A DNA stretch of 64,000 bases, from assembly GCA_030390025.1 (NCBI GenBank), contig CM059431.1, positions 125,490,001 through 125,554,000 on the forward strand, in the 5' to 3' direction. Of the stretch, positions 1-64,000 are shown piece by piece (position 1 is the stretch's first letter; every line of letters begins with the position of its first letter). Below the pieces are notes generated by a model. The model was not told the DNA's origin. It worked only from the letters and a program-made list of their open reading frames with translations, and searched no databases. The DNA comes from Squalus acanthias. Its lineage: Eukaryota. The position numbers were made by a program, and so were the translations under genes.

Positions 1-409
1 GGAACCACTGTATATGGGACCCTACAACATTGTAGACAAGGCGAGTCCCATGGTATACGCCGTAAAAGTACCTCGGCGCACTAAGTGGTTCCACGTAAAC
101 CAATGCAAACTGTACAAGCCAGGTGCGCAAGGGAAAACTACAGGGGTAAATCCCGCCAGTGGGAAAGCACAGCCCCAGGTAGGACCACAAGGCACACAGG
201 CAGGCAAAGCAGCTTGCATCAGGGGAGGGGACATCCTGGAAGATCATGAAGCGTTTTTCTGGAATTGGGAGTTAGATGAGGGAGAATTCAGGGAACTCGA
301 GTCAGATGAGGATAGTGATGACGACGAGTGGTTTTGGAGGAACGGTCCCGTTTTCGATATGGGGAGAATACGGGCTGCAGATAGAGATCCACACAGGGTG
401 GACACACAA
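1..409 (+). pseudogene. pol: Truncated second copy of the endogenous retrovirus pol (integrase C-terminal GPY region and tail)
   Basis: Translation MGPYNIVDKASPMVYAVKVPRRTKWFHVNQCKLY... aligns with the Pol C-terminus at 59052->58641 on the minus strand. Similarity stops abruptly after GGACACACAA at 409. Confidence 0.93.
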
Positions 410-1121: not shown

Positions 1122-2250
1122 GTGGGGGCTGCACTGATTCGGGGCGTCGTCCTGCACCTGCAGAATCGGAGGAAGCAGAGACGCAGAGAGAGAGTGGCAA
1201 ACATGGCCAGAGGGAGGAGGGCCAACAGGCCTCTGCACAGGAAACCTTACCCTCCCAGGGTATTCAGGGAACAGTTTTCATACCTTCATTTGTCTGAGGA
1301 GCAGTGTTTGCGCAGGCTGCGCTTCAGCAAGGAGGTGATCATTTGAGCTATGCCATCTGCTGCAACCAGATCTGCAGCCTCAACTCAGGACCAGGACGTC
1401 TCTGTCGGTGGCAGTGAAGGTGACAGTGGCTCTGAATTTTTATGCCAGCGGCTCCTTTCAAGCTTCTACTGGGGACATCGCCAATATATCCCAGTTCGCT
1501 GTCCATTGCTGTATCCAGGAGGTGACAAATGCCCTGTATAAAAGGAGACGCCAGTACATCTCTTTCCCGGGCCAAACAGCATGAACACGCATGTGGCTTT
1601 GCTCGGATAGCGGGCTTCCCCATGGTGCAGGGCACCATTCCCTCCATGAATGTGGCATTATGGGCACTGCATGAAAAGGCAAAGGTATTCCGAAACCGCA
1701 AGGGCTACCACTCCTTAAACATCCAGTTGGTCTGTGACCACACACAGCTCATACTCGCCGTCAATGCTCGCTATCCTGGCAGCAGCCACAATGCTTTCAT
1801 CCTGCGCCAGACCTTTTCCAGGCACCGCATCACCCAAGTGGATGGCTCCTCGGGGACAAGGGTTATCCACTCTGCACGTGGCTGATGACACCGCTCCGTA
1901 ACATGAACACCCCTGCCAAGCTGCGGTATAATGAGAGCCATATCGCCATCAGGAATATAACTGAGCAGACGATCGGCATGCTCAAGCAACGGTTCCGCTG
2001 GCTGGACCACTCAGGAGGAGCCCTGCAGTACTCTCCTGAGCGAGTCTCCCTCTTCATAGTTGTGTGCTGCATGCATCACAACCTGGCAATCCTGAGGACC
2101 CAGCCAATGACACCAGGGATTGGTGCACCACCTGAGGAGGAGGAGGAGGAGGAGGAGGATGATCAGCAGCAGCACCAAGGTGGGAGGGAGGCCCACAATG
2201 TTGCCACTGCAAGGGCCGTCCATGAATGGCTGATAACAAGACTCTTCTAG
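1122..2250 (+). pseudogene. Harbinger (HARBI1-like) DDE transposase, frameshifted
   Basis: ORF pieces [35 protein letters not shown]...[16 protein letters not shown] and [27 protein letters not shown]...CCMHHNL, plus an acidic tail. Confidence 0.9.
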
Positions 2251-2562: not shown

Positions 2563-4445
2563 CTACTTTTTGCCCTTCGAGGGTGATCTCCATCCCTTGC
2601 GCACTTCCCCCCTTCCCACCCTACTGCTCCTCCATAATGTGGCCCCAGTGGCTGCAGCAAGGCTGGTGGAAGGCTGCTGAATGTCAGATGCAGAGACTGC
2701 AGATGCCCATGAAGGACGCCCTCGACCAGCTTTGGGCCTGGAGGGCCCGGCTGCAGACTGCAACAACTCTGCATGGGCGGCAGCAGTCTGGGCTGGCTGT
2801 GTTGCAGGTGGTGGCAAATGCAATGGGGAAGTGCCAGTGGTGGGAGCAGGAATGCTGTCATCCTGAGAGAGGACAGCACCTTCCTGCTCGACCGACACAC
2901 TGGCACTCCCACGGGGCAGTACCTCAGCATCCGGAGCAATCTGTTCGAGCACAGATTGCTGGCCTGCAGCGGCAACATGAGAGCTCCGGGGCAATGTGGC
3001 TGACCCAGCGAGGATGGCAGCAGTCAGTGCTTGCGTGACATCAATCTGAGAGTGCATGAGAGCAGTCTGAGACTGGATGGCACCAGCCAATGACTCAATT
3101 GCAGCACTAAGCCATTGCGTTACGTCGGCCTGTGCTGCAGCGGACTGCTCCACACTCCTAGCCAGTCCATCCATGCTTTCAGGCACCCTTTCCATTGCAC
3201 CCATGCGCTCAGTGTGCATGTTCAAGGCCTGACTATTCATGGCCGCGATGGCGCGGTCCTCATCCTAGTCCTGTGCAGCAGGACTCGCTTGCCTATTTTC
3301 CCTCCGGGGAGCTGGCCCCCAAGCTTCCCTACCCCCATGGAATTGCTGCAGCCCGCTGGGTCCCGGAGCTTCGCCCTCATCAGACCCTACTCCCTGCTCC
3401 CCTCCAGGGAAGGCGTGGTCCCAGTGTCTGAATGGGCTCCCTCGGGAGACGCAGGCGGTGAGGCTCCGGCTTCCTCTTCCTCCTCGTCTGGAGCGTCGCT
3501 GCCACTGGTAGTTTGAGGGACAGGCTGGTCAGCTGGTGGTTCACTATCTGAAAGCAGGAAGGTACAAGAGTGGCTTTAGCGTGAGGACAGGGGAGCAGTA
3601 AGGGAGCACGGACTGGAGACAGTTAGTAAGTTGGATTGAAAGTGTAAAACAGGCTGGTCTTGTGAGGGGTAAGTGGAATAAGAGAGGAGAGAAAGCTGAT
3701 GAACATACCATTGCTGTCCCCAAGGGGGTCGACCTCTCCAGAGGCCACGGCACCTATGACCTGGCTGGCAACGATCCTGTGCACGCACGCCTCCAAATCG
3801 GTGAGGGTGTGTGTAGGTCAGCCGGTCCTCCTTCCGTGCGTTGCTGCTCCCACCTGTTATGAGAGCTTGGCCTGCAAGAAAAAGGACGCGTCTGAGTGAA
3901 TATGCAGCCATGTGCTTGCCTGATGTGCCTCGCATAGTTGAATAGCCCTTAATGTTTGCAGCCATGTGCTTGCCTGATGTGCCTGCCGTAGTTGAATAGC
4001 CCTTAATGTATGCAGCCATGTGCTTGCCTGATGTGCCTCCCATAGTTGAATAGCCCTTAATGTTTGCAAGGTGTGGAATATGCGTGTGTGTTTTATGAGA
4101 TGGCCATAGGTCTTGGATGAGTGTTGGGCATTGGGGTTTTTAAAACCTCTGGGCACAGAGTGAAGTTGAGATGGAGGGATGTAGAGGCATTGAACAGCAG
4201 CCACTCACCCTGACCACCCGAGTGAGGTCGTTGAACTTCTTCCGACATTGGGTGTGGGTCCTGGGCACCAGGCTCCTGGAGGAGACGTGCTGAGCAAGCT
4301 CCCTCCAGACTCTTCTTTATTCACGGGGCAATGGCCTCCTGCCACTCTGTGGGTAGAGCAGTGCCAGTTGCCGCTCCACAGCGCCAACCAGAGCCACCAA
4401 GGCCTGGTCGCTGAAGCGCTGAGCTCTTTCCCTGGGCCTATCCAT
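2563..4445 (-). pseudogene. Harbinger Myb/SANT-like DNA-binding gene, intron-containing, with premature stops
   Basis: Exon 1 at 4445-4209 (MDRPRERAQRFSDQAL...W...RTHTQCRKKFNDL) ends at GTGAGT. Acceptors near 3872 and 3548. The last exon carries the 225-aa Ala/Gln-rich ORF. Confidence 0.8.
3903..4068. repeat. 3 x 54-bp tandem repeat in the Myb-like gene intron
   Basis: TGCAGCCATGTGCTTGCCTGATGTGCCT...AATAGCCCTTAATGT starts at 3903, 3957 and 4011. Confidence 0.95.
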
Positions 4446-5106
4446 TAGTGGTTCCAGTACAATTGCTTTAGAGGTCTCTCCAGGCCGAGATTCAAGGCTG
4501 CAATGAGCCGCCTCCATCCCGTCCCCAGTATCAAAATCCAGCCCATAGTTGATAAAGAAACATTTTAAAGAATAGAAGCACAGTGGAATGGAACTAAGCA
4601 GATTGGTCTTTCAGAGAGCTGGCACAGGTGTGATGGGTTGAATGGCCTCCTTCTGTGCTGTAAATTCTAAAATCTCTGGAATGATTTAAGAAACAGTTGG
4701 ATGATATGATGAATGGATTCTGTTTTTTTCTGAATCAATGAGCTAGGACTGAATGGAATTATTATCTGTATCTAGCTTGTGATCTTTGATACCCACAGTA
4801 AGGTGGGAGGAGAGAAACAATCGTGGAAAAGAGGTTGGACAGATCATACCAAATTCTCTTTCACTTTAGTCAATGGGACAAATTAGATGACTTGCATCAC
4901 ATCCATGTTCTATTTAAAATATGCTATTTTTTTCTAACCAGCCACTTGTCTGCTAGCGACACTGATAAAATTGGTGCCCATATATGTAACCAACTTTGCC
5001 AAATCACTGTGGACATTGGCAAGCACTGCCTTCTATAATTCCCTGAATATGAGCTAGTCTTACTTTGATCTCACTAATTGAATGCTGCCTGGCCTTAGAT
5101 ATTGAT

Positions 5107-52489: not shown

Positions 52490-52940
52490 CAAAAGCAAAA
52501 TACTGCAGATGCTGGAAATCTGAAATAAAAACAGAAACTGCTGGAAATACTCAGCAAGTCAGGCAGCATCAGTGGAGAGAGAGTGTAGCTACACATTGTT
52601 CTCTGTCTATATATGCTTTGCTGATTTGTATTCCTTCACTTTACCTGACGAAGGAGCAGCTCTCCGAAAGCTCGTGATTTCAAATAAAACTGTTGGACTA
52701 TAACCTGGTGTTGTGCGACTTCTCATTTTTGTCCACCCCAGTCCAACACCGGCATCTCCGCATCAGAGGAAAAAGAAGACATATCGGAAGAACTGGTGTG
52801 GAAAGTGGCATCATCAGAACAGATGCGATGGAGACGGAGAAACTGGGAGAATGGAATAGAGTCCTTACAGGATGTGGGATGGGAGGACGTGTAATCAAGG
52901 TAGCTGTGGGAGTCAGTGGGTTTATAGTAGATACTGTAGG
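52490..52940. mobile_element. Cluster of Penelope-like fragments (terminal repeats of two families plus an RT fragment on minus)
   Basis: Minus-strand IYYKPTDSHSYLDYTSSHPTSCKDSIPFSQFLRLHRICS, and terminal repeat sequences at 52490-52580 and ~52590-52760. Confidence 0.85.
52641..52677 (+). ncRNA. Minimal type I hammerhead ribozyme motif
   Basis: TTAC-CTGACGA-A-GGAG(CAGCT)CTCC-GAAA-GC-TC-GTGA. Confidence 0.75.
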
Positions 52941-53472
52941 TCTGTACTGTATGCTTATACCAGGAATTCAAGAGTGCTGCGGTTGCACATCAACTTTATG
53001 TATTGATCTAAAATCTCCATCCAGATGTCACTACTGAAAATTCAGACATTGCTTCACCTACCTGTGAAATTAGCTCCTGGGGCTTGGAATCCTGTATAAA
53101 AAAGTTAGCCAGCACTGAATTTGTATTCCACGCATTTATTGTATTATTAGCAACAATGGTGTAAGGCATCTGCCATTAGGCACTTTTAGATTTATTTTGC
53201 ACTCTGGGTCCAAGTCGTGGGATAGCAATCTACATGCATCATTTTCCTATGATTAAATAATTCAGTGGACCCATATTCTATACAGATCAGCCCCAGAACT
53301 GGAAACTCACTCAATTGCACGTGTGCAAGTGGACTTGTAAGGGATTCTCCTGACCCTGCGTGTCTCGTAGCCTGTGAGATTCACGCGGCTCTGTGCAGCC
53401 TGTATGTCAGTGCGGGTCTAGGCCTGGTTGCCTGTTCTGGTCTCCAGCCAGTCTGGGAACACTAGACACACC

Positions 53473-55256
53473 TGTGAGTGGTTCGAATCACTCTCCCTTA
53501 CGGTTCTAGACACTGGACTTAGATGCGAGAGCAGTAATGGAGATAAAACTCATGTAGACTTGGTTTGAATGGTACGAAATGGAAAATCTTTATTGCATGA
53601 TACTTAAAATTATGAAATACATGTCATACGCACAGATTAATGACAGTACAATCTTACAAACGGTTATAATCAATCTTAGGGAAACGAGGAACGAACGGCA
53701 CAACGTGAATAGGGCACACATTACAAATATCCTTAATCTTTACACCCTCCCCTATCAATATCTATCCTAAACTAGCTTCGTAGGATCTCGAGACTCATGC
53801 TCACCACTCGTAATAACTCGGAGAAATCCCGAATAGCTGATCGGATGTTTTTCACCGCAGCACCCACGTGTCGGTCAGGAGATCTCCTGGTCCCACTTGT
53901 TTACTGGCTTCTGCTGCTCGGGCTAGTAGGCTGGACCGTCTGCTGTAGTGAAGACCTCTGTTGGTTGACTTCACAGTTTAGTCGAGGAGCACCGTTGTCA
54001 ATATCACTGATACGATGTGTTTGCACAGTCCAGTTATCATTGATGCAATATGTTTTGTTAGAAGTTTAAAGAAGAAAACTTCCTGTCGAGAAGACTTGGC
54101 TGATCGACCTACAGGCGCGGTCGGGATTTACTGACCGTGGCGATGGATATGGTCTTCTTCTCTTCTCCTCTCATCTCATCTCATCTCATCTCATCTCGGG
54201 CCTTTGGTTCCGCTGCCAGTTACCAACATAGGTCTTCGTTACGCGACACGAGGTAGATCCGAACGGATCAGAAAGTTCAACAGTCTTTTCAGAAGAGGCA
54301 ACAGGCACGCAGAAGCCTAACTACGAGCACACAGGAGCAGCCACGAAGTTACGAATCGACCGGATAAAACACAGGAGCAGCCACGATGATAAAAGCAGCA
54401 AGCGAGCAAGAGCGGCAAGAGCAAGAGAGCGAATGGACGGTTTGGGGCCTGCAATTATAGTGCAAAAATCTTCCGTTTCCCGCCCAACTATAATGTCCAT
54501 TCTTTTGTTTAGGGTTTGGCGCCCAAATGTCTTGTATGGGTGATCTCCGTCCTTAATGGGTTTCGGGGCTACTCATGAATGTTTGAGTACCTGTTAATAT
54601 TTCTCCCATTGTTAAATCGGTCGGTGTTCTCCCTGGAGGGGTTTGGGGCTTCCAAGTGTCCTGTATAACTACCTGCTAACGGCTCTCTCATCGTAGAGCC
54701 GTTGGGAGTTTACATATTAATGTCCTTTGGATGGGCCCTTAAGTACTTGGTACAATGGCTTTCCTTTGCACCTGGGAGACCGATTCCAGTATCTATGTTT
54801 ATACTGCAAACCCATAATGTCTCGGGTATTATCTTCACTGTGCTGAATCGTTATCGATCTTGCAAAAATGTTTAATGGAACGCCATCTTGTCTGCCTGTT
54901 GAAAAGTCTAGAATGTTCTGTCACGAGGTGCGGCGGCCATTTTACAGGCTGCTTGTGTCCAATTTAAACCTGGCAGCATTCTGCTGAAATAAAAGCTGTT
55001 TGAACGAAACTTTGTGTTTTCTCCTTATTAATCAAATCGCGATAATTGCGAATTCTACAGTCCCTCCTGTTGATGCGAATAACTCCGCTTATCGTATCAA
55101 AAATCTCAGCGGTGAGCAATCTTATCTCGATTTCACTCCGAATCCAGTAAATTAATCCCATAAATTTTAACTTAACTAGGGTCTCTGTGTCGTCCTTATT
55201 TCCCAAGAAAATCACATTTTATATCACCGTAGGCATCATTTGCCCTTAAACTTACA
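53473..55256 (-). repeat. Putative 3' LTR (~1784 bp)
   Basis: Minus strand begins TGTAAGT directly after a purine tract and ends ACTCACA (6/7 terminal inverted repeat). AATAAA at 53594-53589 and TATAAT at 54459-54454. The 5' LTR is not in the window, so boundaries are inferred. Confidence 0.7.
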
Positions 55257-55274
55257 CCACTTGTTTTCCTTCCC
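55257..55274 (-). promoter_or_regulatory. Polypurine tract
   Basis: GGGAAGGAAAACAAGTGG abuts the LTR start. Confidence 0.7.
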
Positions 55275-55481
55275 GGCGTAACCAGGCCGATACCTCACGC
55301 ATCACCTGTATATTTGTCTTTTATTCAGGGAAAGGAAAAACAAAACCCAAAACCAAACAATCAACACCATCACCAAAATAAACAAATCCCAACTCTTAAA
55401 CATGTCGAGTTTCCAACGTATTTACAATGAGTACAAACTTCCGCGGCGCACGCGGCGAGCGGGAGTGACGCCATTTTCCGA

Positions 55482-57833
55482 TTACACGGTGCTCTCGTCG
55501 TGCACGCGCACGTAACGTTCTCGCCACTCTCCCGTGTTCTCATGCTTGGTGAGGCGCTTGTCTCTTTTACAATGTATGAACAATAGGTACACTACAATAA
55601 ACACTTGACAGACGACTAAAATGTGGGAGGCTATTCTGATCCATGAAGGCACTTCAATATTCGTGAACAGATTCCACCACGGTGGAACCACTATGTCCAA
55701 GATGTCTGTTCCTATCTCGACAGTTTTCTGCTCTAATGTATAAAAATGCTTCTGTGATACCGCGACGGCTTTCAGAAGTTTGGTTAAATGCTCAGGGAGA
55801 GGGGGAATGAGGTATCCAAAATGCGCGACAAATCGCTGCAAGTCGGTGAAATTCTCTTTTACTGTGAGATGAACAGTGGATGGTTCAGGGATTGGGATAA
55901 TTCGCTGTTGTGCTACTTGAACTTCAGCCCTGGGTTTAAAACAGAAACTGCTGTCACTCACCGGACACCGGCTACGGTTTCCATGCTGGTAGTGTTGCGC
56001 TGCAGTGGTAACACAATATGTTCCACCCCCGATGTATGCTACCTGCGGAGGCACATGATCTTGTGCCATTGCCTCCATGGTGCAATTCATGGACTTGGCG
56101 CCAGCCGTTCTGAACCCGCACTGTGGTGTTAAAAAGGCATTCAAGTGCTGGGGGCACAGTATTATGTGTGCTCCCCTGCCACGACAACCAGAGAGATCTG
56201 TACCTGTCATCGTTTGCTCCCAGCGGATGACGTAAGGTGGAACCGCTGCATAACGAATGTGGGCTCCCCCCTGAATGACACCAATGTTCTCTACCCGATA
56301 TACCGGGGCGGGCTTTGCTGTGTTGCCCAAAACCGGCATGCGTAATACTATTCCCATAATAGTATGGTTTGAACGTCCGCAGTCCACGGGGACTGGGTAA
56401 GCTTCTGAAGCTAGCCTGAGCTGGCACGGACTTAATGCGTTCTGAAAAGGGTGGAGCGCCCGCAGGTGTTTGTTACTTATCCAGGACGGAACCAAACCTT
56501 GTTTTAAATCCTCCAAATTACTGCGGCCCTCGCCCAGTAACCACGCCCCGTAAAGCACGCACACCTCGTTCTGCGCAGCCTGATCGGATGCATTCCGATC
56601 TTCCCTGATCAGGGCATTTACCGTACGCGCATGTTTCTCCAGCTCTGCTATGATTTCCTTTAAATGGAGAGTCATGGCTTGGTCCTCATGCAGACCCGAC
56701 CCTACCACTTTATTCTCATCTGTTAGAATGTCTTTTAACTGTGTTTTTAAACCATTAATCTGGGTCTGCAGCTCCACACTGTCTAGAGCGTTGACCACAG
56801 ATGTCCCTGTGTTAAAAGCAGTGAACGCATTGTTCACCAAACACCTTCTTTGCCTCCCTACTTGATCCAAAACTTCCTGCGGTGCGGTGTATAAACTTGC
56901 CTTATCAATTTCTGCAAAATCAAACTCGTAAAATTGTCTGAACATCTTGGTCAACAGGACCTGATACAACTGTTCCGTCTTTTTGGGGCACCACTCTGGT
57001 AACCGTACCTCAGTGAGATTTAAAATCACCGAGGCCACCGCGTAATGTACCCCCTGAAATAGTATCTGGTCTGTGGGGACCAGTACCAAACCGTTCCCGG
57101 GTCCCTTACTAGTTTTAGGGCACCCTTCTTCCTCAGTTAGAACCACCGGAATCGTGGGCGGGGCTTTGCGTGGGCGCGTAATGAGCTCAGTGGCATTTAC
57201 TGGGATCGGGGAGAATGGGGCTCCGCACCCCCTGGTGCTCGCATCCCACCTCATCCCCTGTCCGTTATCCTGCCACTGATTAATAAAGAATATGGAGATG
57301 CCTTTGGGGCAAACGTACTTTGACCCCCACATACAAACATAAATCCCCTCATCCGGTTCCCACCATTTGTCCCAACAGACTTTCACTTGTCCGTTTGTCC
57401 CCGTAATTGTCCGATGGGTATTATTACCCAGTCGTTCCCACTCGACCGAAGAGTTCCTCATAGTTTTGCTCAGCTTTCGCAGCCACCACCATCGGCTCAA
57501 TGGGACATCCCCACTACAGGTCAAACAAATCCGTTTGCCGACGGTGACGCTGATCCTGGGTGCGATGATCCGTACTTTGGGGCACATTAAAGAAGTCTCT
57601 TTGTAGGCAAACCCCGATGTGCTGGAATACTCCGTTGAGTTCGTTCCCAGCCATCCTGGCCACCTTCCCTTGTGGAAATAGGTGCTGGTCCCCTCTGCCT
57701 TCCGTCTTCCGGTCCCATCCACCGCGATGGGGGCCGTGTCCCCGGAACATCCAAACACCACGACATCCTTGGTGTGGCCTCGATAGGCCAATCCACATCC
57801 GATTGCCACGAGCAATACTAGAAGTCGTTCCAT
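55482..57833 (-). CDS. env: Envelope glycoprotein, 783 aa: signal peptide, Ig-like domain, F-like class I fusion ectodomain, TM anchor
   Basis: Hydrophobic N-terminus; VTVGKRICLTC...W...DEGIYVC; RQRR furin site at aa 327-330 followed by a fusion-peptide-like segment and heptad repeat; Cys-rich region; TM ILVVCQVFIVVYLLFI. Confidence 0.92.
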   Translation of the reverse strand: MERLLVLLVAIGCGLAYRGHTKDVVVFGCSGDTAPIAVDGTGRRKAEGTSTYFHKGRWPGWLGTNSTEYSSTSGFAYKETSLMCPKVRIIAPRISVTVGKRICLTCSGDVPLSRWWWLRKLSKTMRNSSVEWERLGNNTHRTITGTNGQVKVCWDKWWEPDEGIYVCMWGSKYVCPKGISIFFINQWQDNGQGMRWDASTRGCGAPFSPIPVNATELITRPRKAPPTIPVVLTEEEGCPKTSKGPGNGLVLVPTDQILFQGVHYAVASVILNLTEVRLPEWCPKKTEQLYQVLLTKMFRQFYEFDFAEIDKASLYTAPQEVLDQVGRQRRCLVNNAFTAFNTGTSVVNALDSVELQTQINGLKTQLKDILTDENKVVGSGLHEDQAMTLHLKEIIAELEKHARTVNALIREDRNASDQAAQNEVCVLYGAWLLGEGRSNLEDLKQGLVPSWISNKHLRALHPFQNALSPCQLRLASEAYPVPVDCGRSNHTIMGIVLRMPVLGNTAKPAPVYRVENIGVIQGGAHIRYAAVPPYVIRWEQTMTGTDLSGCRGRGAHIILCPQHLNAFLTPQCGFRTAGAKSMNCTMEAMAQDHVPPQVAYIGGGTYCVTTAAQHYQHGNRSRCPVSDSSFCFKPRAEVQVAQQRIIPIPEPSTVHLTVKENFTDLQRFVAHFGYLIPPLPEHLTKLLKAVAVSQKHFYTLEQKTVEIGTDILDIVVPPWWNLFTNIEVPSWIRIASHILVVCQVFIVVYLLFIHCKRDKRLTKHENTGEWRERYVRVHDESTV

Positions 57834-57846
57834 CCTTCCTTGGTTC

Positions 57847-57870
57847 CTGTGATCAGATAGAATGAGGTAG
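57847..57870 (-). promoter_or_regulatory. Putative env splice acceptor
   Basis: CTACCTCATTCTATCTGATCACAG|GAACCAAGGAAGGATG, 13 nt before the env ATG. Confidence 0.65.
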
Positions 57871-58124
57871 CCAGCCTCGCAAAAAGTCTCTGGCTTTGGT
57901 GAAGGGTGAGCGGGTCCCCTGACCTCGCCTCACGTAAACTTCAACGTTTGCTGAATAGACTTCCTCTAAAACCTAGCCTTAAAACTCCCACCATTTTATC
58001 GTTATCTGTTAAAACACTACAAACTTAACCTTGAACTAATAAACTTAAAACTTAACCTTGAACTATAAACTTAAAACCTTAAACTAATAACTTTACAGTG
58101 CCGCCCGTTCTCAGGGCGGCCCCT

Positions 58125-61100
58125 TTAAATTCTGAGAAGGCTGCTGCGAGCTCTTCCCGACGGTGGGAGGGCACTGACCCTTCCCTCTGATCTGCCGCAG
58201 CCTGTTACTGCTGCGATGTGGCCTGTCTCTACCCGGGTTATCTTAACCTGAATTTTACGCCTTGGGGCAGTCTGGGGACATGACCACATCCTCCTGGGCT
58301 GGGGTTCTCTACTTGACCTACGGGGAGTTGCTATGGGCGGGGGTTCCGTGACGGACGGACCGGGTTCCGAGACCTCCAACGGGACGACCTGGGGTTCCAT
58401 CACAGTCGCCGGCTCCGCCTCCGCTGACTCCGCCTCCCTAACCCCGGGGCTGGCAGTTCGTGGCTCCGCCCTGCTCGGCCCAGCAGGCGGCCCTTCACTC
58501 GTGATCTCTGCCTCCCCTGAGGACTGGACGTTCAAAGCGGGCGGCCACACCTCTGGGAACCACATTGGTACTCTCTGTGCTCCTATAGCGGCTGGCCCTG
58601 CCTCCTCTAGCTCCTCCCTCCTGTCCTCGGGACCTGCAGCTTGTGTGTCCACCCCGTGTGGATCTCTACCTATCGGCCCCAATCCTCCCAGACCGTTCCT
58701 CAGGAACCACCCGTCATCATCACTATGCTCATCTGCACTATCCTCATCTGACCAGGGAACCCTGGGTTCTTCGTCATCTAACCCCCAACTCCAGAAAAAC
58801 GCTGCATGATCGTCCGGGATGTCCCTTCCCCTGATGCAAGCTGCTACGCCTGCCTGTGTGCCTTGTGGTCCTACCTGGGGCTGTGTTTTCCCATTGGCGG
58901 GATTTACCCCTGTAGTTTTCCCCTGCGCACCCGGCTGGTACAGTTTACATTGGTTTATGTGGAACCACTTAGTGCGCCGAGGTACTTTTACGGCGTAAAC
59001 CATGGGACTCGCCTTGTCTACAATGTTGTAGGGTCCCATATACAGTGGTTCCAGACTCCCTACTCTGGCGTAGTTTCTGACCATGACCTGGTCTCCTACT
59101 TCCCATTCCCGCGTTTTGCAGGGTTCCAGCAACAAGCGATTGCCCTGATGCTGCCTTCCCATGTTCCCAGCCGCCTGCTCATAAACTTGCTTCAGGCGCT
59201 CCAAGAGAGTTTGGGCGAACTTGTCCCTGCTTATCTCTTGAAGCTGACCCTCAGTGAGCACCGGGGCTAGCACATGGGTGGGGGTTCGCATGAGCCTGCC
59301 GGTCATTACCTCGTGCGGGGAGTACCCCGTACTTTTTGACTGACTGGCCCGGACCCCCATGAGGACTAAAGGCAGAACTTCCGCCCATTTTTGGGGCGAG
59401 TTCCTAGTCTCTTTCCTCAATTTCTCCTTCAGGGTCCGGTTCATACGTTCGACAATCCCGGATGACTGGGGATTGTGTGCTACGTGCCACTTCCCTTCAA
59501 TGCCCAAAAGCATGAGGGTGTTCTGCATCACCTGGCCGGTGAAATGACTCCCTTGGTCTGACTCCACAAAACGGGGGAGTCCCCACCGCGAGAACACTTC
59601 CCGGACCAAGATTTTTGCTGTACCCAGTGCCGTAGCTGTTCGACAAGGGAAGGCTTCCACCCACTTGGAAAACACATCCACCAGGACGAGGCAGTACTTA
59701 TAACCTCCCTGGGTGGTGGGCAGGGGTCCTATATAGTCGATCTGTATCGACTGCCATGGTCCCTCTACCCTTCTTACGTGTCCCATGGGCACCTTCCTTT
59801 TCTGGGGGTCTGGGTTGTTTGCAGCGCACACAAGACAGTTTGCACAGAACTCGCGGACTTGTTCCCTGAGCCCTGGCCACCATCCCGCTTGCTCTACCCG
59901 TTGCCAGGTAACCTCGGGCCCGGGGTGCCCTGCCCCTGGTCCCTCGTGAGCCAACTGGAGGAATTCCCTCCTGTGCTGCTGCGGCACAACCCACTGCTCC
60001 CCGCGGAACAGCATGCCTTCCTTAACTGAGAGGGTTGCCGTACTGTACGGACCTTCTACCTGCCTCCCCTCAGCAATCGTTTTTAGGACTGCTTTTAGGG
60101 CGGGATCCTGGGCTTGGACGGTCTTAAGGTCTAGGGGCAATGCTACCCTGGTGTTCCCGGTATTCCCGTCCCCGCCTCGGACCGCTGCTATGGGTCCGGT
60201 CCTATAGGGGTTCCAGAAAGTGCCGTCGCGGGCACCCTCCCTGGCTAGCGCATCTGCCTGCCGGTTGCCCTCCCCACGGGGCTCTGCGGAGGAGTGAGCT
60301 TTCACCTTATGGATGAAAATCTCCCCTTCCTCCCCTACTGCTGCTGCTAAGATCTTTTCCAGCAAGGGCTTCACCGTTAAAGGTCGCCCGTCCGCGGAGG
60401 TGTATCCGCGGCGGGACCAAATGGCCAGGTATTCCGTACACGAATTGCAGGTGAACATACTGTCCGAGCAAATCGTGTATGGGGTTGGGAAAATGTCTGG
60501 GTGGGTCACCACGTACACCACGGCAGACAGCTCAGCCTGCTGCGCGCTCATGGTGCTAGGGAGCTTGATCGCCAGGGCAAGGTCTGCCGCAGGGTCATAA
60601 ACTCCACACCCTGTGAGTCGCTCGCCAGCAGACACTGTGCTAGACCCATCAACATAAATCTCGCGCCCAGTGGGATGTATCCCGGCCCGTAAACCTATGT
60701 TGACGTCCCACACCCCTTCCACCGAACACCGGTGGGCTGTACCGGGGTATACCAAATTGGCCGCAAGCCTGGGCTCGCAAAGACCTTTTACTCTAAGATC
60801 CAACTGGGAGAGAAGAAGGGTCCAACGCGCAATGCGTGCGCTGCTTACGGTCCCGTCTTTAATCCTCCCATCCAGAAGCATCTTAGTTGGTGTGTGATGT
60901 GTGAGGAGAGTGATGGGAGAGAGCCCTGTGAAGATCGCTGATCTTTTCACAGCCCAATGCGTGGCTAAAAGGTGCCTTTCGCAATTGGAAAAACTTCTCT
61001 CCACATCCGTTAATACCCTGGATGAATAGACAACCGGCCTCAGCTTGCCGTGACGCTCTTGGAGCAGCACGGCGCTTAAGCTGTCCCCGCTGGCAGCTAC

Positions 61101-62609
61101 CTCCAGGAAAAACTCCTTCCCCCCATCTATGGCCCCTAAGGCTGGCGCGGTCTGCAGATCCCTTTTTAACTTCTCGAAGGCTGCTTGGCAGCCCTCGTCC
61201 CAAAGCCACTCCACCCCCTTATGGAGGAGTCGGAGGAGCGGCGCCGCTGTGGCCGCATAATCTTCGATAAAATCCCTGCAGTAACCGGTCAGTCCCAAGA
61301 AGGACCTCACACCCCTTACGTTGTTGGGAATCGGTAATTCTTGCACCGACTCCCTCCTTGCTTTGTCTATGGCTCTTTCCCCAGCGCGTAGGGTCAGTCC
61401 CAGGAATTTTACTTCCTGCTGACCGATACGTGCTTTCTTTGGGTTTACTTTAAAACCCTTTCTCGCTAACAGCTCCAATAACTCGTCCAGTAGTGGTCCG
61501 TGCTCCTCCCTTGAGTCCGTAAATAGGAGCAAATCATCCACATACTGTACTATCTGATTGGGCTGACTAAACTCCTTTAAACTTCCTGCCATACACTGGT
61601 GAAAAATACTGGGGCTATTGTGGAAACCCTGTGGCAAACAGTTCCACGTGTACTGTTGCCCTTTAAACGTAAAGGCAAACTTGTACTGGTCCTCTCGCCG
61701 CAGCGGGATGGACCAAAAACCGTTCGAGATATCCAGCACCGTGAACGTGGTCGCCGACGCTGGGATGCTCCCTATTAGGTCAGCAACTGCTGCTACTGTA
61801 GGCGCGCAGGCGGGAATGTTACTGTTAAGGACTCTGTAGTCCACCGTGGCTCTCCACGAATTATCCGGCTTCCTAACCGGCCATAATGGGGAGTTCACGT
61901 GTGTGGCTATCGGCCTCAACACGCCCTGCTGCACCAAGGAAGACATTGCTGCCTCCATATCGGGTTCTGCTTCTTTGGGGAAGTTATACTGCTTTTGGGG
62001 TCGGGTCATGGGGTCCCCATCTACGCTGACCTCAAACCCGACCACCCTCCCACAATCGTGCTTGTGGGTTGCAAACGCGTGCATATTATCTGACACGTAC
62101 GTTTGCATGTCCGTTGGGACATCTGCGACCATAAGCCTGAGGTCGTAGCCTCCGGATGGCTGTACGGTACACAGGACCCCCGTTTCTTCCTCTCCTTGAA
62201 TTACCATTACCTCGCCTTTTTCACCTTTAGCCCCCCAGAGACAGTGATTTCTGAGGTCCACGAGGATCCCGTGTCCCGCTAGGAGATCGGACCCGAGAAT
62301 ACCTCTTCCACCCCCCTTTTGCCATGCCATCAGTATACACTTCCACTTAAGGCGAAGTGTTCCTAAACGAATGGATAGCGGGAGGGAAAACGTGCCAGCC
62401 TGTTCTTTCCCTGTGAACCCTGCTAGCGTGAATGGGACCTTGGTAGATAGCGGCGAGTCAAAAGGGTCATCTGTATGGATTATGGTGCAAGACGCTCCCG
62501 TGTCCAACAAATAACTGCCCTTCTGTTTCTCTACCTCCATCTCCACCACAGGTCGCCTCCACGCATCATAGCTGAGCGGACACAGGTAGACGGGCTGTGC
62601 TGGTTCTAG
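58125..62609 (-). CDS. pol: Pol polyprotein: protease, RT, degenerate RNase H tether, RNase H, integrase, C-terminal tail
   Basis: LLDTGAS; LDISNGF, LPQGFHNSP, YVDD; FFLEVAAS; YVDGS, QAEL, SDS, KAH, ADAL; H..H..CLVC; IDYIG, SDQG, ERMN; GPY. Open and in frame from the gag stop. Confidence 0.97.
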   Translation of the reverse strand, partial: LEPAQPVYLCPLSYDAWRRPVVEMEVEKQKGSYLLDTGASCTIIHTDDPFDSPLSTKVPFTLAGFTGKEQAGTFSLPLSIRLGTLRLKWKCILMAWQKGGGRGILGSDLLAGHGILVDLRNHCLWGAKGEKGEVMVIQGEEETGVLCTVQPSGGYDLRLMVADVPTDMQTYVSDNMHAFATHKHDCGRVVGFEVSVDGDPMTRPQKQYNFPKEAEPDMEAAMSSLVQQGVLRPIATHVNSPLWPVRKPDNSWRATVDYRVLNSNIPACAPTVAAVADLIGSIPASATTFTVLDISNGFWSIPLRREDQYKFAFTFKGQQYTWNCLPQGFHNSPSIFHQCMAGSLKEFSQPNQIVQYVDDLLLFTDSREEHGPLLDELLELLARKGFKVNPKKARIGQQEVKFLGLTLRAGERAIDKARRESVQELPIPNNVRGVRSFLGLTGYCRDFIEDYAATAAPLLRLLHKGVEWLWDEGCQAAFEKLKRDLQTAPALGAIDGGKEFFLEVAASGDSLSAVLLQERHGKLRPVVYSSRVLTDVERSFSNCERHLLATHWAVKRSAIFTGLSPITLLTHHTPTKMLLDGRIKDGTVSSARIARWTLLLSQLDLRVKGLCEPRLAANLVYPGTAHRCSVEGVWDVNIGLRAGIHPTGREIYVDGSSTVSAGERLTGCGVYDPAADLALAIKLPSTMSAQQAELSAVVYVVTHPDIFPTPYTICSDSMFTCNSCTEYLAIWSRRGYTSADGRPLTVKPLLEKILAAAVGEEGEIFIHKVKAHSSAEPRGEGNRQADALAREGARDGTFWNPYRTGPIAAVRGGDGNTGNTRVALPLDLKTVQAQDPALKAVLKTIAEGRQVEGPYSTATLSVKEGMLFRGEQWVVPQQHRREFLQLAHEGPGAGHPGPEVTWQRVEQAGWWPGLREQVREFCANCLVCAANNPDPQKRKVPMGHVRRVEGPWQSIQIDYIGPLPTTQGGYKYCLVLVDVFSKWVEAFPCRTATALGTAKILVREVFSRWGLPRFVESDQGSHFTGQVMQNTLMLLGIEGKWHVAHNPQSSGIVERMNRTLKEKLRKETRNSPQKWAEVLPLVLMGVRASQSKSTGYSPHEVMTGRLMRTPTHVLAPVLTEGQLQEISRDKFAQTLLERLKQVYEQAAGNMGRQHQGNRLLLEPCKTREWEVGDQVMVRNYARVGSLEPLYMGPYNIVDKASPMVYAVKVPRRTKWFHINQCKLYQPGAQGKTTGVNPANGKTQPQVGPQGTQAGVAACIRGRDIPDDHAAFFWSWGLDDEEPRVPWSDEDSADEHSDDDGWFLRNGLGGLGPIGRDPHGVDTQAAGPEDRREELEEAGPAAIGAQRVPMWFPEVWPPALNVQSSGEAEITSEGPPAGPSRAEPRTASPGVREAESAEAEPATVMEPQVVPLEVSEPGPSVTEPPPIATPRRSSREPQPRRMWSCPQTAPRRKIQVKITRVETGHIAAVTGCGRSEGRVSALPPSGRARSSLLRI

Positions 62610-64000
62610 TCATGGGGCACTATTAGACGGTCCTGCGGCACCTACGGGGCCGGTTGCGACCGCCACCTGTCCACGCGCATTCAAAACCATCTTGCGCATG
62701 GCTCCTAACACTGCTTCGAGGTCGTCGGGGGAGGTGGGTGCCTTTGCTTCCTTAGGCGGGACAGGCGCCTGGGCTCGGACCGCGGGATTTTTATCCTTGG
62801 AATCCTTCCAAGGGTTCCTGCAGTGCTTGCGCCAGTGCCCTGTCTTCCCACACCCGTAACAGGCATTACTTGCCTGTGGGGCGCGATTACCCTCCTGATG
62901 CCACTCTCTTTGAGCTGGGGCTGCGGGTCGTACCTCATGTACTCTTCCCTTAAAGGGACGTGTCGTCATACCCCTTATGTTACGGTAACCTAACGTGAGT
63001 CGATTCAAGACCGACTCTTCCGTAAGGTTGAGGTCATTGGGATCGAACCAGGCCTTTGCCTGCTCTCTAACGGCTGGTAAACTGTTGGCTATTATGCACC
63101 TAAGCCAATGAATTAAAGCGGCGCCTTCCACATCTTCGCGCTCGGGCGCACCTAGACAGCTGCGCTCATATACTGGCCACAGCCTGTCGGCAAAAACCTT
63201 CGGGGGTTCTCCCTCCATCTGCACTGTCTGTCCCACTCTAGCAAACGGACCTCCGTCGTTCGCTCCCACTACTTCTAGGACCTCATTTTTCAATTCCTCA
63301 TAACTTTTATTTTCCCTCTTGCTCTCGCCTGAGAGACACTGAAGGACCGAGCTGTCTAACGAGAACAGCAGCATTTTTGCTGTCTCCCCATCATCGCAGC
63401 CGTTGATGGCTGCGGCTTGCTCAACTTCCCTGAAATGGACGGAAGGGTCGTCTACCTCGGTCAGCTTCCTTACGTGGTTTATCATGGCTCTCAGCTGATG
63501 TGAACTGTGAGGCAACACCAGCTGTCCGAGGAGATCCCCCGGTTCTTCCCCACCGTTTCTGCTTGGGCCCCTTTTAACCCCCGTTACTGGATACAACGAT
63601 CCCTTTTCTACTTCCTTTTCAACGGGCTCTTTTGTTTCTTCCGTTGCTTCCTCCCTAACCCAGGTTTCTGAATAGCTGGGTGGCGCGGAGGGCGCAGTGG
63701 CTACTACTTCTTCTGCTTTACTTGGTGGGGAATTTCTAAATCTCTCATTTACTAGCGGCTGGCGCGCCGACGGATTGATAAGGCACACCATGCCGTTCGC
63801 ATTATTCACGGCCTTTTTGAGGCTCTCTATCTCTTTTTGGCAGGCGCTATGGTCGGCTCCCTGAAACTTATCCTCAAGGGCCAACTTATACGCCGACCTA
63901 ACCCCCATTAAGCTCTCTTCCTGAGTTCTTATCTGGGCAGCTTGGCGGTTACATCTTTCCTTCATCCTACTCTCGTTCAATTTTGCTTCAGTGATCTGGC
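62610..64000 (-). CDS. gag: Gag (5'-incomplete; frame open to the window edge)
   Basis: Coiled-coil-like N-terminal part, PSAPPSY, helical capsid-like region, and zinc knuckle CYGCGKTGHWRKHC. Confidence 0.93.
   Translation of the reverse strand, partial: QITEAKLNESRMKERCNRQAAQIRTQEESLMGVRSAYKLALEDKFQGADHSACQKEIESLKKAVNNANGMVCLINPSARQPLVNERFRNSPPSKAEEVVATAPSAPPSYSETWVREEATEETKEPVEKEVEKGSLYPVTGVKRGPSRNGGEEPGDLLGQLVLPHSSHQLRAMINHVRKLTEVDDPSVHFREVEQAAAINGCDDGETAKMLLFSLDSSVLQCLSGESKRENKSYEELKNEVLEVVGANDGGPFARVGQTVQMEGEPPKVFADRLWPVYERSCLGAPEREDVEGAALIHWLRCIIANSLPAVREQAKAWFDPNDLNLTEESVLNRLTLGYRNIRGMTTRPFKGRVHEVRPAAPAQREWHQEGNRAPQASNACYGCGKTGHWRKHCRNPWKDSKDKNPAVRAQAPVPPKEAKAPTSPDDLEAVLGAMRKMVLNARGQVAVATGPVGAAGPSNSAP

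Follow-up and report, generated by a model that had tools for sequence, protein, structure and literature searches.

A CUA triplet directly after a UGA codon defines type II stop codon readthrough, for which a stem about 8 nt downstream is frequent and, with CUA, not required (PMC3542737, PMC13517186; papers are cited here for the passages that bear on each point). The UGA-CUAG signal has so far been known from alphaviruses, a dicistrovirus, and vertebrate genes, and among 256 contexts compared in three human genes CUAG ranked first, 764 of 765 variants giving lower readthrough (bioRxiv 10.64898/2026.07.14.738498). For retroviruses, a review of August 2026 gives only UAG-G and three UGA contexts other than CUA, and describes cis-elements outside the gammaretroviruses as unknown (PMC13517186). 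Section 4.1.2 of the same review reports an in-frame gag-pol UGA in SSSV (UGAAGA), ZFERV (UGACGA), and RMEV (UGAAGU), and XtERV-S likewise has an in-frame UGA at gag-pol that is presumed to be suppressed (PMC8278194). Suppression is a presumption in all four cases, and the passages concerned cite no experimental verification. Here we analyzed a 64,000-nt window of the Squalus acanthias genome (assembly GCA_030390025.1, contig CM059431.1, positions 125,490,001 to 125,554,000), in which the gag and pol genes of an endogenous retrovirus (ERV) lie in one frame on the minus strand and are joined by a single UGA followed by CUAG.

Judged by its sequence, the element is an intact ERV, probably related to the snakehead retrovirus (SnRV; class III). 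No retroviral UGA-CUAG was found in print in the literature searched, which leaves most subscription journals and the Repbase reports outside its scope, and the supplements of PMC10435555 contained no TGACTAG in the files searched (all but files 13 and 14). What appears to be new is the CUAG context in a retrovirus, the in-frame gag-pol UGA itself being already published. A retroviral UGA-CUAG would be a short, testable signal and would mean that alphaviruses, host genes, and retroviruses all employ one leaky context, and the mode of Pol expression is a criterion in retrovirus classification. Biologically, this extends the gag-pol readthrough known from textbooks and involves no new mechanism.

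The gag-pol junction

The minus strand reads GCC CCA TGA CTA GAA CCA GCA across the junction, where the following features were distinguished (coordinates are those of the window).

62613..62615, minus strand: CCA (Pro) codon directly 5' of the stop, from the sequence; unfavourable for readthrough in human reporters
62610..62612, minus strand: UGA, the sole stop between gag and pol, from the sequence and the reading frames
62606..62609, minus strand: CUAG, the type II readthrough context, from the sequence, with the motif as defined in PMC13517186 and PMC3542737
62543..62603, minus strand: predicted 61-nt hairpin that begins 6 nt past the stop, a possible stimulator (dG -27.3 kcal/mol)

The list of open reading frames (ORFs) contains a gag frame (63998..62610, minus strand, 462 codons) that stays open up to the end of the window. 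The pol frame (62609..58125, minus strand, 1494 codons) abuts it in the same phase with the single TGA between them. The pol translation starts as LEPAQPVYLCPLSYDAWRRPVVEMEV and runs into LLDTGAS, the protease Asp being codon 36. The junction has UGA followed by CUA, one of the two triplets (CUA and CGG) that type II readthrough calls for, and the frame past the stop is open and conserved, with no alternative start that would give the whole protease. Both the letters and the abutting frames agree with a preliminary description of this DNA, made from the sequence alone, in which a single in-frame UGA with CTAG joined gag to pol and the frame stayed open to LLDTGAS. Its statement that UGA-CUA(G) is leaky in alphaviruses and vertebrate genes is matched in the literature (PMC13517186, PMC3542737). 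Its account of the retroviral background was incomplete, since UGA at gag-pol had been published for SSSV, ZFERV, RMEV, and XtERV-S.

The heptamer TGACTAG is by itself not rare, with six matches in the 64-kb window against 7.4 expected. CTA followed by G makes up 10 of the 1955 in-frame codon pairs of gag and pol (0.5%), the type II triplets CUA and CGG together account for 30 of 1956 codons (1.5%), and of the 137 TGA trinucleotides that the coding strand of the element contains (53401-64000) only the junction TGA has CTAG next, figures that are indicative only because the motif was chosen after the fact. What is unusual is the position of the heptamer at the junction, not its frequency.

Proposed expression of Pol across the stop codon

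Readthrough of the UGA is the best explanation for the expression of Pol, and we regard it as quite probable on the evidence of sequence. We infer that one unspliced genomic RNA would be translated from the gag start, that most ribosomes would terminate at the UGA and release Gag, and that a few percent or fewer would insert an amino acid by means of a near-cognate tRNA. The latter would continue into protease, reverse transcriptase (RT), RNase H, and integrase, which would set the ratio of Gag to Gag-Pol. Trp, Cys, or Arg is expected from near-cognate insertion at UGA. The CUAG 3' of the stop would lower the efficiency of termination, and the hairpin, from position +10, may add to this effect. 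No slippery heptamer was found near the stop, and none is needed because gag and pol share a frame.

Readthrough, which the preliminary description had proposed, is the most likely route because Pol has no start that would give a whole protease and because relatives largely exclude a private nonsense mutation. No AUG occurs in pol before codon 24, only 12 codons ahead of the catalytic Asp, and a start there would remove the PL..D..GRP.V strand conserved in relatives. The AUG at codon 24 bears on the improbable alternative that Pol is made from a spliced RNA, either from its own AUG in the manner of foamy viruses or after removal of the stop with an intron. Class III includes the foamy viruses, which have a separate pol start (PMC8278194), and Met24 has a good Kozak context and is itself kept in P0050, a relative with 84% identity; however, a protease begun at Met24 would lack conserved N-terminal strands. 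One weak acceptor is present at 62572 (12 of 17 pyrimidines), and the TAG within TGACTAG is a YAG, but the AUGs just after the 62572 acceptor are out of frame and the other acceptors upstream of Met24 have only 7 to 9 of 17 pyrimidines. SnRV has no Met before its protease Asp, and the gag-pol phase, which a spliced pol would not require, is kept across relatives. The read overlay, with contigs from 4 of 24 runs (two of the four guessed to be RNA) that inform on presence only, had no GT-AG joint in pol among the listed items, and we count this neither way.

The position of the stop is shared by relatives. The alignment column of the stop is also where all four full-length Gag relatives (P0171, P0172, P0175, and P0176, about 50% identical) terminate, one residue later and in Pro-Gln; P0173 and P0174, truncated or frameshifted earlier, were left out of this count. 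In the SnRV-like viral contig L001, gag-TAG-GGC-pol is likewise in frame, and the protease Asp follows after 32 codons, as compared with 36 in the element. In the elephant shark, CmiERV on scaffold 2 has gag-TGA-CAT-G in frame with the Asp 44 codons on, as read by eye from an old, mutated copy (PMC4422223). A private nonsense mutation is unlikely because the Gag relatives, L001, and CmiERV scaffold 2 all have a stop there. A private nonsense mutation, which the preliminary description named among the findings that would refute it, is largely ruled out by the four Gag relatives, at the protein level, and by the L001 stop. That the TGA arose by nonsense mutation in a once-fused Gag-Pol, so that this copy makes no Pol, is accordingly very improbable. 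Fused forms do exist, as in the coelacanth model P0053, with Gln at the stop position, and in the lokiretrovirus (Loki) protein P0059. The common end of the four Gag relatives speaks against such an origin, P0050 (84% Pol identity) is predicted from an internal Met and not as a fusion, and besides the junction TGA no stop or frameshift is present in gag, pol, and env (the 5' part of gag lies beyond the window).

Selenocysteine insertion and A-to-I editing are known ways round a UGA. Recoding of the junction by either, in the latter case to a Trp codon, is the least probable of the alternatives. An Rfam search over 53000-64000 at E up to 1 gave no selenocysteine insertion sequence (SECIS) or other relevant family and three weak, unrelated matches; the UGA would be a poor substrate for editing because it is unpaired in the predicted fold; and relatives carry UAG at the same site.

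Several observations weigh against readthrough at this UGA or against a role for its context. The main objection is the Pro codon CCA at position -1 of the element, whose Gag relatives end in Pro-Gln. All four Pro codons at -1 bring UGA-CUAG readthrough to the level of the negative control in human reporters (bioRxiv 10.64898/2026.07.14.738498), which by analogy predicts weak basal readthrough. The same CCA precedes the stop in L001/SnRV, with UAG-G after it, and SnRV is infectious, so a virus with this arrangement can replicate, probably because structure helps readthrough despite the CCA. The predicted hairpin is well placed but modest and, in the folding model, not statistically exceptional (z -1.94 and 6/200 shuffles for the 70-nt window; z -1.95 to +0.66 for the other six window lengths), and better folds are predicted for many of the 80-nt windows in gag-pol (mean z -0.59, standard deviation 1.24, lowest -4.9). 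A downstream fold, which the preliminary description had suggested looking for, is predicted at 62603-62543 and does not stand out. The coelacanth gene model P0053, of the same RT clade, runs from Gag into Pol without a break and has its Gln precisely 36 codons ahead of the Asp, and 10 of 24 Loki consensus elements are annotated as fused, so the gag-end stop is not universal. In several more distant relatives (P0011, P0013, P0020, P0023, P0026, and P0049), a Met is predicted 27-36 codons ahead of the protease Asp, which would fit a pol start of its own in their lineages, with the qualification that alternative start codons may appear as M. Finally, what is conserved in close relatives is the position of the stop, as seen in proteins, and conservation of CUAG itself would be an assumption; the 40 of 546 variant sites listed by the read overlay include none at 62606-62612.

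P0053 reads Gln-Gly where the element has its stop and SnRV has UAG-GGC, and it has no CCHC knuckle. Loose ends of the overlay at 62578 and 62580 (X18 and X12) and a joint to 62578 (X15) mark where the match to diverged relatives resumes just 3' of the stop, which hints faintly at an island of conservation there.

The CUAG context and the lokiretroviruses

The supplement of Wang and Han (PMC7947760) contains 17 matches to TGACTAG, a lower bound, of which four lie at the end of gag, in Loki-Ofa, Loki-Cne, Loki-Pyo, and Loki-Sau. In these four, TGA CTA GG is in frame with the annotated pol start (frames read by eye), and the codons at -1 differ (TTA, GCA, ACG, and CAA, respectively). All four entries labelled 'Gag protein' (Bsp, Ofa, Pyo, and Sau) end in TGA. 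The annotation of the 24 Loki consensus elements gives a single gag-pol frame for 10 and a separate pol for 14; the junction comparison covers 4 of these 14, and line breaks in the source may hide matches. The four junctions count as one independent event, not four, because they probably belong to one sub-branch. A word search found no 'readthrough', 'stop codon', or 'frameshift' in the available main text of PMC7947760 or of its follow-up PMC9040795. The available parts of PMC7947760 list no cartilaginous fish host, and the Orectolobiformes row of its supplement has three genomes and 0 positive. The parallel suggests a route of Pol expression for one lokiretrovirus branch, which these parts of the paper do not address.

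On balance of the sequence evidence, we favor CUAG as the working signal of the leaky stop, less firmly than readthrough itself. The competing possibility, a sub-case of readthrough that takes the smaller share of the probability given to it, is that CUAG is incidental or minor and that downstream structure or another context drives the process, as UAG-G and structure do in gamma- and snakehead retroviruses. We consider this rather unlikely. The contexts of relatives and other elements do vary, including UAG-GGC (L001), UGA-CAU-G (CmiERV), and UGAAGA, UGACGA, and UGAAGU (SSSV, ZFERV, and RMEV); the review concludes that retroviral readthrough is not bound to one context (PMC13517186), and the Pro at -1 weakens the motif. 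Against an incidental CUAG stand the 0.5% chance expectation of CTA-G at the junction codon, the same motif at four Loki junctions, and the weakness of the hairpin.

With CUAG as the signal, a broader picture can be put forward tentatively, at somewhat less than an even chance: two deep retroviral lineages may both set their Gag to Pol ratio by UGA-CUAG. One would be an intact family related to SnRV that has an F-type Env and occurs widely in cartilaginous fishes, the other a single branch of the lokiretroviruses. If both lineages use it, type II (UGA-CUA) readthrough would be recorded for the first time among retroviruses, and either UGA-CUAG arose twice or suppression of an in-frame stop is an ancient way of expressing Pol that goes back to near the base of Retroviridae and Loki.

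The element, its relatives, and known systems

The remaining features of the element are as follows.

62610..63998, minus strand: gag ORF with coiled coil, capsid-like region, one CCHC zinc knuckle, and TGA end; its 5' part lies beyond the window
62820..62861, minus strand: Gag CCHC zinc knuckle, from the sequence (Pfam zf-CCHC E 0.066; E 3e-6 in the relative P0171)
58125..62609, minus strand: pol, with protease, RT (YVDD), tether, RNase H, integrase, SH3-like domain, and an acidic/Pro-rich tail of ~270 residues
55482..57929, minus strand: env frame with signal peptide, Ig-like stretch, RQRR cleavage motif, heptad region, and C-terminal membrane segment
55068-55060, minus strand: polypurine tract, by motif inference
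53473..55068, minus strand, including the polypurine tract: putative 3' long terminal repeat (LTR), from TG at 55059 to CA at 53473, with AATAAA at 53594, by motif inference

The order gag-pro-pol-env-LTR, with tether and RNase H, is that of a retrovirus, and the element is also of note as a class III provirus that has no interruptions and carries an unusual Env. No second LTR that could confirm the LTR ends is present in the window, the positions of the 5' LTR and primer-binding site being outside it. The Pfam search of pol recovered RT, tether, RNase H, and integrase, with the protease (catalytic Asp codon 62504-62502, minus strand) below the cut-off. Near-identical sequence occurs in runs from at least nine organisms: of the 24 listed runs, 20 (13 studies) contained no less than half of the words sampled from the gag-protease stretch. 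RNA runs were absent from the list, which has no bearing on expression. The strongest local RNA folds of gag-pol are at 61360-61440 (minus strand), inside RT, with z -4.9 and -3.6.

The env frame has a likely ATG at 57833 and a likely splice acceptor at 57848-57847 (minus strand), and its Ig-like stretch falls below the Pfam cut-off (Ig_3, E 0.029). By language-model likeness Env resembles F-type fusion proteins (Atlas features Baculo_F 0.91 and Fusion_gly 0.91), sequence searches of Pfam and PDB gave no match that would name it, and its single-sequence fold had a predicted local distance difference test (pLDDT) score of 32.7. An F-type fusion protein on a non-Loki RT backbone is a lead only. 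The title of PMC11468914 ties the foamy virus Env to F proteins.

After the SH3-like domain of integrase, the pol tail (58128-58937, minus strand) comprises ~270 acidic, Pro-rich residues. Other copies differ in it by a 39-nt duplication in 4/4 runs and a 21-nt deletion in 3/4 runs, both of which keep the frame and therefore hint at translation of the tail. The 3' end of the same pol is present a second time, in the opposite orientation, at window positions 1-409 (plus strand), where it is 84% identical to 58641-59052 and has one frame still open. Positions ~1200-2250 (plus strand) and 4100-4500 (minus strand) resemble by eye a decayed transposase and partner gene, which we take to be a Harbinger/PIF transposase with its Myb-like partner. 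Fragments at ~52600-52950 (minus strand) are presumably Penelope-type repeats, which we assume to be common in sharks.

The nearest Pol relative is P0050 (84% identity), followed by frog and coelacanth 'NYNRIN-like' models (45-46%). Gag is 46-50% identical to Gag-like skate proteins and Logan proteins, and Env 74% to a skate protein and 59% to a sawshark protein, named relatives of Env and Gag being found only there, a distribution that on its own points to a cartilaginous fish as the most likely host. The sawshark Env model includes a fused Niban-like gene. A scan of viral contigs with RT had L001 as its sole match, and the RT of L001 agrees with the SnRV RT fragment in print. Its Pol is 32% identical to that of the element over 800 aa and its RT 42%, and comparison of Env with part of the SnRV Env gave no significant match (best E 0.28). 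Scans of metagenomes with the protease and with P0004 yielded no relative. The pattern of TGACTAG before DTGA occurred at 120 loci in viral contigs, none with a tblastn match to the element or Loki Pol, and these are chance matches.

The RT tree comprised 33 rows (32 segments from 31 chosen proteins and the window), with group labels read from the row sequences and without foamy or ERV-L rows. The element fell inside the retrovirus clade (support 100/97, 18 rows), apart from gamma- and epsilon-like rows, and its supported sister was the group of frog and coelacanth 'NYNRIN-like' elements (95/92); within this sampling no supported link to L001/SnRV was obtained. A lokiretrovirus identity of the element was rejected, since its RT lies outside the Loki clade (100/99) at 33-38% identity; the Loki rows P0059, P0061, P0062, and P0063 had been assigned by likeness to published Loki proteins. 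P0102, a suspected Loki, was also rejected, as it groups with Ty3/gypsy rows. The P0005 cluster of frogs has 24 members at 90% identity, of which the 15 listed are all from two frog species; many are full-length Pol with a 'NYNRIN-like' annotation, and the cluster probably represents an ERV family of recent origin within the sister clade. L001 Pol at ~830-910 and P0151 ahead of its RT contain inserts in which two HxT/S motifs (HCTL and HVSL) occur, and we presume that these inserts resemble 2H phosphoesterases.

Among described groups, the SnRV-related group corresponds to clade Huo, which includes class III ERVs (Xu et al., PMC6001957), and most RTs of cartilaginous-fish ERVs belong to clade III (Gifford, PMC11089739). 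With SnRV, clade Huo, and CmiERV lineage I (PMC4422223) the element has in common gag-stop-pol in one frame, a stop 32-44 codons before the protease Asp, a coiled-coil Gag with one CCHC, a YVDD RT, and tether plus RNase H. It differs in that SnRV has the type III-like UAG-GGC where the element has the type II UGA-CUAG, and the Env of CmiERV-I looks gamma-type by eye. With Loki it shares a dual RNase H and UGA-CUA-G at the gag end (4/24 Loki elements) and may share an F-like Env with an R-x-x-R site, but it does not have the Loki-type long insert between protease and RT. In Spumaretrovirinae, pol lies in another frame and starts at a separate AUG of a spliced RNA, whereas here it is in the same frame without an AUG for the full length, and a CCHC knuckle is present. 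Gag of Spumaretrovirinae is not known to have such a knuckle.

SSSV, ZFERV, RMEV, and XtERV-S resemble the element in their in-frame UGA between gag and pol; unlike it, the first three are epsilon-related with non-CUA contexts, and the gag of XtERV-S is described as ERV-L-related (PMC13517186, PMC8278194). The UAG-G that, with a pseudoknot or stem-loop, makes up the type III arrangement of gamma- and epsilonretroviruses is absent, the stop here being UGA-C. The identical UGA-CUA(G) context is found at alphavirus nsP3-nsP4 (Sindbis virus, SINV, and O'nyong-nyong virus, ONNV) and in human AQP4, OPRK1, MAPK10, OPRL1, and MDH1. Stems of type II viruses start at +12 to +16 in the published viral table, as compared with a possible start at +10 to +14 in the element. 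These are unrelated genomes, and the element differs from them by its retroviral Pol extension and the Pro at -1. The feature is very likely a programmed leaky stop, and it would work like alphavirus-type readthrough, sited where gamma-, epsilon-, and snakehead retroviruses have UAG.

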